This document shows positions 45,309 through 46,454 of a DNA stretch of 48,511 bases, one piece after another. Position numbers and translations under genes: made by a program. Every line of letters begins with the position of its first letter. Position 1 is the first letter of the stretch. Origin of the DNA: Stegostoma tigrinum (Eukaryota); contig NC_081362.1 in assembly GCF_030684315.1 (NCBI RefSeq), forward strand, positions 96,470,676 through 96,519,186, in the 5' to 3' direction. The notes below the pieces were generated by a model that had not been told where the DNA came from, made no database searches, and was given only the letters and a program-made list of their open reading frames with translations.

Positions 45309-45915
45309 CTGTGAGACAAAGAATTAAATGTCATGACCAGGCAGCCGGTATATTGTTTCAGAATCTTTCCCGATAAAGACCACATCACTCTGATCCGATT
45401 TATCATGCAGTGTCCTTAGCTGGGATCAGAATACTTTCTGCAATGATTATAAAACCCTGATCTCAGATTATTGTCACAAATGTGACTGATCATACCTTTT
45501 CCCTAATCACAAAATCAAAACCTCTCATCATCTTGAAAACTCCATTCGATCCCCTCTAAAAATTCGTTGATTTGTGGAATGGTTCTGAAAAGGTCTGTCT
45601 CTGTCGGCTGGTGGACTACAGGATGCTGTTTCTGTGTCTGAAGGTCCATCTATTTTCGGATCCACTTGTTGCAGCATTGCCATCCTGAGGGGCAGTTACA
45701 AGCTGTAACTATAACCCCAGGAGAATCCTATCACCTTCATTCTGTCAGTTGTGGGTTCACCACATTTTATGGTCAGTTGTGTTCATCAGACAAATGACCT
45801 GCTCTAACTGTTAGTTTATTAAACACAGCAGGAATCTAACTGTGTAAAAGGAATATCTGGAACAGCAAGTGATTCCTGCTAAGTGTTGTGATCATGAATA
45901 AATTAGTTTGCTTAC

Positions 45916-45959
45916 CATTTACTGTTTCATACACGGCATTCTGGTCTTCACCGGGGCTC
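45916..45959 (-). CDS. Gene C cytoplasmic exon 1 (SPGEDQNAVYETVN)
   Basis: 44-nt phase2-1 exon with GTAAGC donor; homologue in gene B at 31694-31727; the acceptor of this copy reads CG, with an in-frame GAG 3 nt downstream. Confidence 0.75.
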
Positions 45960-46454
45960 CGAAATAAATACCACACATTGGAATTATTGCACATTTACTG
46001 TTTCATACACAGCATTCTGGTCTTCACCGGGGCTCCTAAATAAATACCACACATTGGAATTATTGCACATTTACTGTTTCATACACAGCATTCTGGTCTT
46101 CACCGGGGCTCCGAAATAAATACCACACATTGGAATTATTGCACATTTACTGTTTCATACACAGCATTCTGGTCTTCACCGGGGCTCCGAAATAAATACC
46201 ACACATTGGAATTATTGCACATTTACTGTTTCATACACAGCATTCTGGTCTTCACCAGGGCTCCGAAATAAATACCACACATCGGAATTATTGCACATTT
46301 ACTGCTTCATACACAGCATTCTGGTCTTCACCAGGGCTCCTAAATAAATACCACACATTGGAATTATTGCACATTTACTGTTTCATACACAGCATTCTGG
46401 TCTTCACCAGGGCTCCTAAATAAATACCACACATTGGAATTATTGCACATTTAC
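45916..46454. repeat. 76-bp minisatellite, 7 copies (intron end + cytoplasmic exon 1)
   Basis: Units start at 45916, 45992, 46068, 46144, 46220, 46296 and 46372. Confidence 0.95.

Follow-up and report, generated by a model that had tools for sequence, protein, structure and literature searches.

The 48,511-nucleotide stretch of Stegostoma tigrinum DNA analysed here (the window) contains a splice-junction minisatellite of the "mirage" type, a class known from amphioxus and from human genes, in the cytoplasmic-tail region of a receptor gene. The allele that carries it here is probably a loss-of-function one, unless the last unit was mis-called. The reading that we prefer, at slightly better than an even chance, is that slippage at a 7-nt match generated the array and that the loss of AG from the acceptor of its last copy likely leaves an allele with decay-prone transcripts and no second signalling isoform.

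Results

Tandem Repeats Finder detects a tandem array at 45916-46454 with a period of 76, 7.1 copies, 98% matches, and a score of 1015. On the minus strand, the array resolves into seven 76-bp units, each composed of 32 nt of intron end and a 44-nt exon, as an earlier note on this DNA had claimed. The copies are in exact register; the exon copies start at 46415, 46339, 46263, 46187, 46111, 46035, and 45959, with a spacing of exactly 76 (Table 1). In transcription order, the acceptor dinucleotides are AG, AG, CG, CG, CG, AG, and CG. The three units said to retain TAG do retain it (exon copies ending at 46372, 46296, and 45992), and CG is present in the remaining 4/7. The GTAAGC donor follows the seventh exon copy only, and the CG acceptor reported for that same unit is indeed what the window reads. 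The exon copy that starts at 46339 codes A where T is expected.

Table 1. Features of the repeat array and of the host gene within the window.
Feature	Position	Strand	Basis or remark
7-nt microhomology GTAAATG in the upstream intron	46448-46454	-	same as the last 7 nt of the exon, exactly 76 bp away
Unit 1: 32 nt of intron end with AG plus 44-nt exon copy, without authentic donor	46372-46447	-	sequence
Unit 2: AG acceptor, one amino-acid change, without authentic donor	46296-46371	-	sequence
Unit 3: CG instead of AG, without authentic donor	46220-46295	-	sequence
Unit 4: CG instead of AG, without authentic donor	46144-46219	-	sequence
Unit 5: CG instead of AG, without authentic donor	46068-46143	-	sequence
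Unit 6: intact AG closest to the real donor on the upstream side; splicing there would give a 120-nt exon and a premature TAA	45992-46067	-	sequence
Unit 7: authentic exon 45959-45916 (phase 2 to 1); acceptor CG here, in-frame GAG at +3	45916-45991	-	sequence; donor use by X5 joint 45308/45916
Sole authentic donor, GTAAGC	45910-45915	-	sequence and X5 joint
Transmembrane exon, 151 nt, phase 1 to 2	47628-47778	-	sequence model; matches P0038
Tail exon 3, 74 nt	45235-45308	-	model; X5 joints on both sides, X6 downstream joint
Tail exon 4, 42 nt, first ITAM tyrosine	43421-43462	-	model, P0038, X5 joints
Tail exon 5, 43 nt, remainder of ITAM	42186-42228	-	model, P0038, X5 joint 42228/43421
Likely start of last coding exon and stop codon	41220-41230	-	inferred from sequence

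The seven units differ at five variable sites. At all five, the change is from A/T to G/C relative to the contig or majority state, and at four of them it creates a CpG; under an equal-rate null, the probability of this bias is 0.012. The bias fits GC-biased conversion or a sequencing or platform artefact. The changes held in common by units of the array form a nested, ordered pattern. When one AG unit and one CG unit were folded, the structures were weak and the acceptor was not clearly masked. A coding VNTR, in which protein length tracks repeat number, was ruled out because a unit length of 76 is not divisible by 3 and a read-through frame ends two codons on. Mutually exclusive tandem exons were ruled out as well, since the authentic donor is present in one of the seven copies and splicing at either of the two cryptic donors tried would change the frame. 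Two more minisatellites are found in the window, at 6931-7156 (75 bp, 3 identical copies) and at 33328-33703 (34 bp, 11 copies).

The match between the upstream intron and the end of the exon is likely the seed of the duplication. Slippage or unequal crossover between the two 7-nt matches would duplicate the intron end together with the whole exon and leave the donor out. Because the match brackets the exon and excludes the donor, an array in which only the last of seven copies carries a donor would require no selection.

The transmembrane-plus-tail model of the host gene matches the protein P0038 (Stegostoma tigrinum LOC125454593, XP_059504765.1) at 116 of 117 residues, and the Rhincodon typus ortholog LOC109931673 (P0036) is identical at 106 of 115 aligned residues over the transmembrane and tail exons. 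P0038 comprises two V-set domains, and the V-domain exons of the gene lie beyond the window end. The annotation of LOC125454593 reads only uncharacterised, cluster look-ups of the host proteins returned single members, PDB matches of the host protein were antibody V domains only, and our literature search on this receptor family gave nothing relevant. An ITAM has the consensus YxxL/I-x6-8-YxxL/I; two YxxL/I half-sites, found by pattern in both P0038 and P0036, make up the predicted ITAM. The peptide of the repeated exon is present once in each of the four closest proteins (P0038, P0036, P0008, P0004), serine included. A protein search for other tail isoforms gave four matches among 110 candidates, all single-copy, and shorter tail proteins numbered zero among five candidates. 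The likely last exon stops a few codons before the whale shark and epaulette shark proteins do, and the annotation gives P0038 another, longer end.

When an open V exon of the window was used as the query, 45 proteins were recovered among 107 candidates, all of them from sharks. A transmembrane segment and a tail are present in 36 of the 45; eight of these 36 fit the ITAM pattern, and ITIM or ITSM patterns occur in many of the rest. From their sequences, this mixture of tails is as in a paired-receptor family. The Scyliorhinus canicula proteins P0020 and P0040 contain tail segments matching the 42-nt exon 4 that are duplicated in frame, and duplication of tail exons seems to recur in the family.

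Other traces of the family are found within the window. A decayed paralog of the host gene occupies 31490-31850 (+); its transmembrane exon has a frameshift and a stop, most of the next intron is deleted, and a single 44-nt exon remnant remains, with a stop at the tyrosine codon and a donor changed from GT to AT. In this remnant (31490-31730), the region upstream of the exon has been lost, and the ancestral acceptor is not readable there. V-type Ig exons of the family with J-like ends are located on the minus strand at 3960-4380, 7270-7700, and 10030-10440 and on the plus strand at 21950-22320, 23960-24360, and 26050-26420. All six contain stops or frameshifts, as in a decaying part of a receptor cluster. 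The long open frame at 27429-29615 (+) resembles the reverse transcriptase of a retroelement, with an endonuclease of GIY-YIG-like type at its C-terminus.

Sequencing runs provided a view of splicing and of a second animal. Eighteen runs were found, 14 of which contain part of the stretch, and four (X1, X5, X6, and X7) were compared as contigs over 42150-45991, an interval that includes the last unit only, so that all units collapse onto unit 7. The comparison drew on 40 of 343 rows of letter differences, 24 of 485 loose ends, and 32 of 11046 pieces. The kind of X5 and X6 is unrecorded; both were taken as RNA since their cover tracks exons and GT..AG joints. X5 is another sample with the same organism label, X7 is from a related species in which paralogs are possible, and X1 is a DNA-like run. 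Contigs drop variants, and their depth was not taken as copy number. Three joints are present in X5, all GT..AG on the gene strand: 45308/45916 (depth 189.8), 43462/45235, and 42228/43421 (depth 793.1). In another animal, therefore, the donor of the last unit is used and the ITAM exons 4 and 5 are joined. Together with P0038, these joints support the gene model, the ITAM exons, and the donor use that had been proposed for the last unit. The observations on regular splicing through the last unit are the donor use in X5, whose contig reads AG at the acceptor, and the single exon copy in P0038. The exon-3 allele at 45296 in X5 and X6 is that of P0038 and differs from the window. X6 has no cover on the unit. 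The raised depth in X7 also spans the downstream intron, which points to paralogs and says nothing about the array in the related species.

The lengths of the X5 contigs show that the array is not confined to the assembly. One contig of 666 nt (45280-45945) runs through the downstream intron with 14 differences from the window, and another of 68 nt covers the acceptor (45931-45991 plus 7 beyond). In simulations with 31-letter words, two or three AG units reproduce both contigs exactly, whereas a single unit predicts 414 nt in place of the 68 nt observed. The array thus exists in a second animal with at least two units, which rules out the whole array as an assembly artefact. Repeat number is seven in the window and at least two in the animal of X5. 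X5 also contains unspliced or read-through unit sequence at a depth of 132.8. Among the routes listed, its exon 3-5 contig has a depth of 793 versus 190 for RNA spliced from the repeated exon and 36 for the retained intron; about 570 of the 793 is not accounted for by these routes, which may reflect skipping of the repeated exon or a 3' bias and weighs against the preferred reading. Neither a read-through isoform nor a +3 isoform was found among the contigs over 42150-45991, a stretch that ends short of the transmembrane-exon junction.

The consequences of a CG in the last unit were modelled as ten splicing routes for the window haplotype. Nine of them end at a stop 78-607 nt ahead of the last junction: two use cryptic acceptors, one skips the exon, three read through, and three combine with a cryptic donor located 7 nt within the copy. 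The modelled read-throughs from the upstream TAGs stop 227, 531, and 607 nt before that junction, and one further weak donor gives a stop 78 nt before it. From the TAG one unit upstream of the last, read-through reaches a TAA two codons past the exon copy, in agreement with the frame described earlier; the additional claim that a GAG 3 nt inside the last unit would keep both frame and ITAM is reproduced in the modelled transcript, and this is the only route that does so. In mammals, a premature stop more than 50-55 nt before the last junction leads to nonsense-mediated decay. Since all nine stops exceed this distance, the truncating forms are predicted decay targets.

Discussion

These models suggest the following course for the two states of the last unit. 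With an AG there, the upstream copies would mostly be spliced out as intron. With a CG, splicing would mostly turn to the identical intact acceptor one unit upstream, and the resulting 120-nt exon would contain a premature stop, or the exon would be skipped, with a frameshift. Nonsense-mediated decay is predicted for both forms, which would leave a trickle of full-length receptor made through the weak GAG at +3. Use of the TAG 76 nt upstream would be expected by analogy with human F7, in which the identical site of the next repeat takes over once the authentic donor is lost (PMC1557585, in part). On these models, the CG allele is more likely null or weak than a signalling switch, and the suggestion that a VNTR allele may inactivate the gene is supported for the CG allele, with truncation in nine of the ten modelled routes.

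The CG in the last unit of the window is probably real. A possible, if somewhat unlikely, alternative is that the array is real and the CG (with the GCC) of its last unit came about through an error of consensus or polishing or through misplacement of a variant, in which case the gene would be intact and the array a neutral mirage. The acceptor reads AG in all five covering contigs listed and in all three covering runs (one contig in X5, two in X1, and two in X7), and every contig covering it is also of the CCCT and GCT unit type. The CG acceptor is absent from the contigs covering the last-unit position, X1 included, although contigs drop variants. X1 may be the source of the assembly; its contigs are identical to the window over 931, 335, and 319 nt. 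In X1 contig 8, which ends at 45945, unique downstream intron is continuous with a unit of the GCT type; from the window haplotype alone, GCC and a contig end at 45965 would be expected. Unless the variant was lost in contig cleaning, contig 8 speaks for a mis-called last unit. Such a loss of the CG path could have occurred, because contigs drop variants, the depth of X1 is low (4-9), and X1 also contains a second haplotype or paralog. From 42500 to 45100, X1 contains a second contig set with 4-11% differences in patches and many letters in common with X7, from either a deeply diverged haplotype or a paralog. The CG units make up 5% of distinct words, so the word share in X1-X4 (0.74-0.83) is uninformative on them. 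The one-sided spectrum of the unit variants is odd and would suit an error, but it could come from GC-biased conversion, and the nested order of the changes is expected of real turnover. A precedent for error is the amphioxus BflGb6 mirage, which was mis-assembled in the draft genome (PMC3087553, in part).

Given a real CG, the allele could still work if the in-frame GAG 3 nt downstream took over, yielding the full ITAM receptor minus one serine; we regard this as quite improbable. The GAG is the sole frame-keeping route and lies directly behind the same pyrimidine tract, and GAG-containing tandem acceptors are used at times, but acceptor preference follows CAG > TAG > AAG > GAG, with GAG the least preferred (PMC2699507, in part). 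The GAG would also compete with the identical intact TAG acceptor one unit upstream, and neither the four closest proteins, all of which keep the serine, nor the five candidates for shorter tails supply such a product. Still less probable, and unsupported by the data gathered here, is the claim of the earlier note that acceptor choice places a stable ITAM-less tail beside the ITAM form, so that repeat alleles shift the balance of activating and non-activating receptors. On paper, read-through does yield a tail without the ITAM, and the family has both ITAM and ITIM/ITSM tails, but the premature stop 227 nt before the last junction predicts decay of that transcript. The AVYETV near which this tail would end, described as ITIM-like, fails the ITIM consensus. 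That consensus is S/I/V/L-x-Y-x-x-L/V/I, and in the repeated exon the position two residues ahead of the tyrosine is Ala. In the 26 family tails that have the motif, the residue at this position is I or V in 5, T in 10, A in 5, and P in 6, so that 15 of the 26 have an ITIM- or ITSM-type residue (I, V, or T) there. The unspliced or read-through unit sequence in X5 might be read as such an isoform, but intron-retaining RNA alone accounts for it, and an ITAM-less isoform was not among the proteins found. A bolder proposal, which we consider improbable, is a reversible on/off switch of a shark activating receptor, in which unequal crossover or gene conversion brings AG-type or CG-type units to the last position. 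If true, the gene would be silenced and restored as fast as minisatellites change, whether in germ cells or even within leukocyte clones, and a vertebrate innate receptor would behave as a contingency locus does.

With the decay-prone allele as the preferred reading, the array is a vertebrate example of a known repeat class in which the origin is visible as a 7-nt match, and it may mark a null allele of an undescribed ITAM receptor. Its identical acceptors, 76 nt apart, are a natural setting in which to study how 3' splice sites are chosen. Should AG and CG units exchange at the last position often enough to toggle the gene, the repeat would be driving a presence/absence polymorphism within a family of immune receptors. 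A literature search, which left most subscription papers outside its reach, turned up neither a paper on this locus nor one on an entire exon that is repeated while its donor is left out.

Several known repeats provide points of comparison. Human minisatellites over exon-intron boundaries, including the 37-bp VNTR in intron 7 of F7 and those of IFI6 (6-16), CBS intron 13, LMNB2, and PDGF, likewise have copies that are silent pseudo-sites; the F7-type repeats duplicate the donor, whereas the shark array duplicates the acceptor and the exon (PMC1557585, in part). The CBS 844ins68 allele also duplicates an intron-end/exon-start junction, and its distal copy is favoured, giving normal mRNA (PMC2630376, in part; the available passage says "donor" for a junction that is the acceptor). 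In CBS there are two copies of a partial exon, and the duplication rescues a mutation; in the shark, the distal copy is the damaged one. Tandem duplication with mutually exclusive use (PMC8373072, in part) resembles the shark array in that a whole exon is repeated, but the shark copies lack their own donor and are near-identical and recent, and the donor use observed is that of the last copy. The kilobase units of LPA KIV-2, which contain complete exons, were set aside for that reason (PMC11201333, in part). The closest likeness is to the mirages of the amphioxus globin BflGb6 and Adh3, as far as the available part of PMC3087553 describes them. In BflGb6, an intron 3' end and exon start are repeated in tandem, with 6 and 3 units in two haplotypes; in these mirages, only some units keep the splice signal, and regular splicing is undisturbed. 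The shark array has an intron 3' end and the following exon in tandem, few units, a unit that spans an exon-intron boundary (exon status being given by P0038 and the X5 joint), and a signal in some units only, AG in 3/7. It differs from the amphioxus mirages in that part of the source in that its unit extends over the whole exon up to the donor, it resides in the gene of a vertebrate immune receptor, and in the window the functional position is taken by a unit that has lost its AG.
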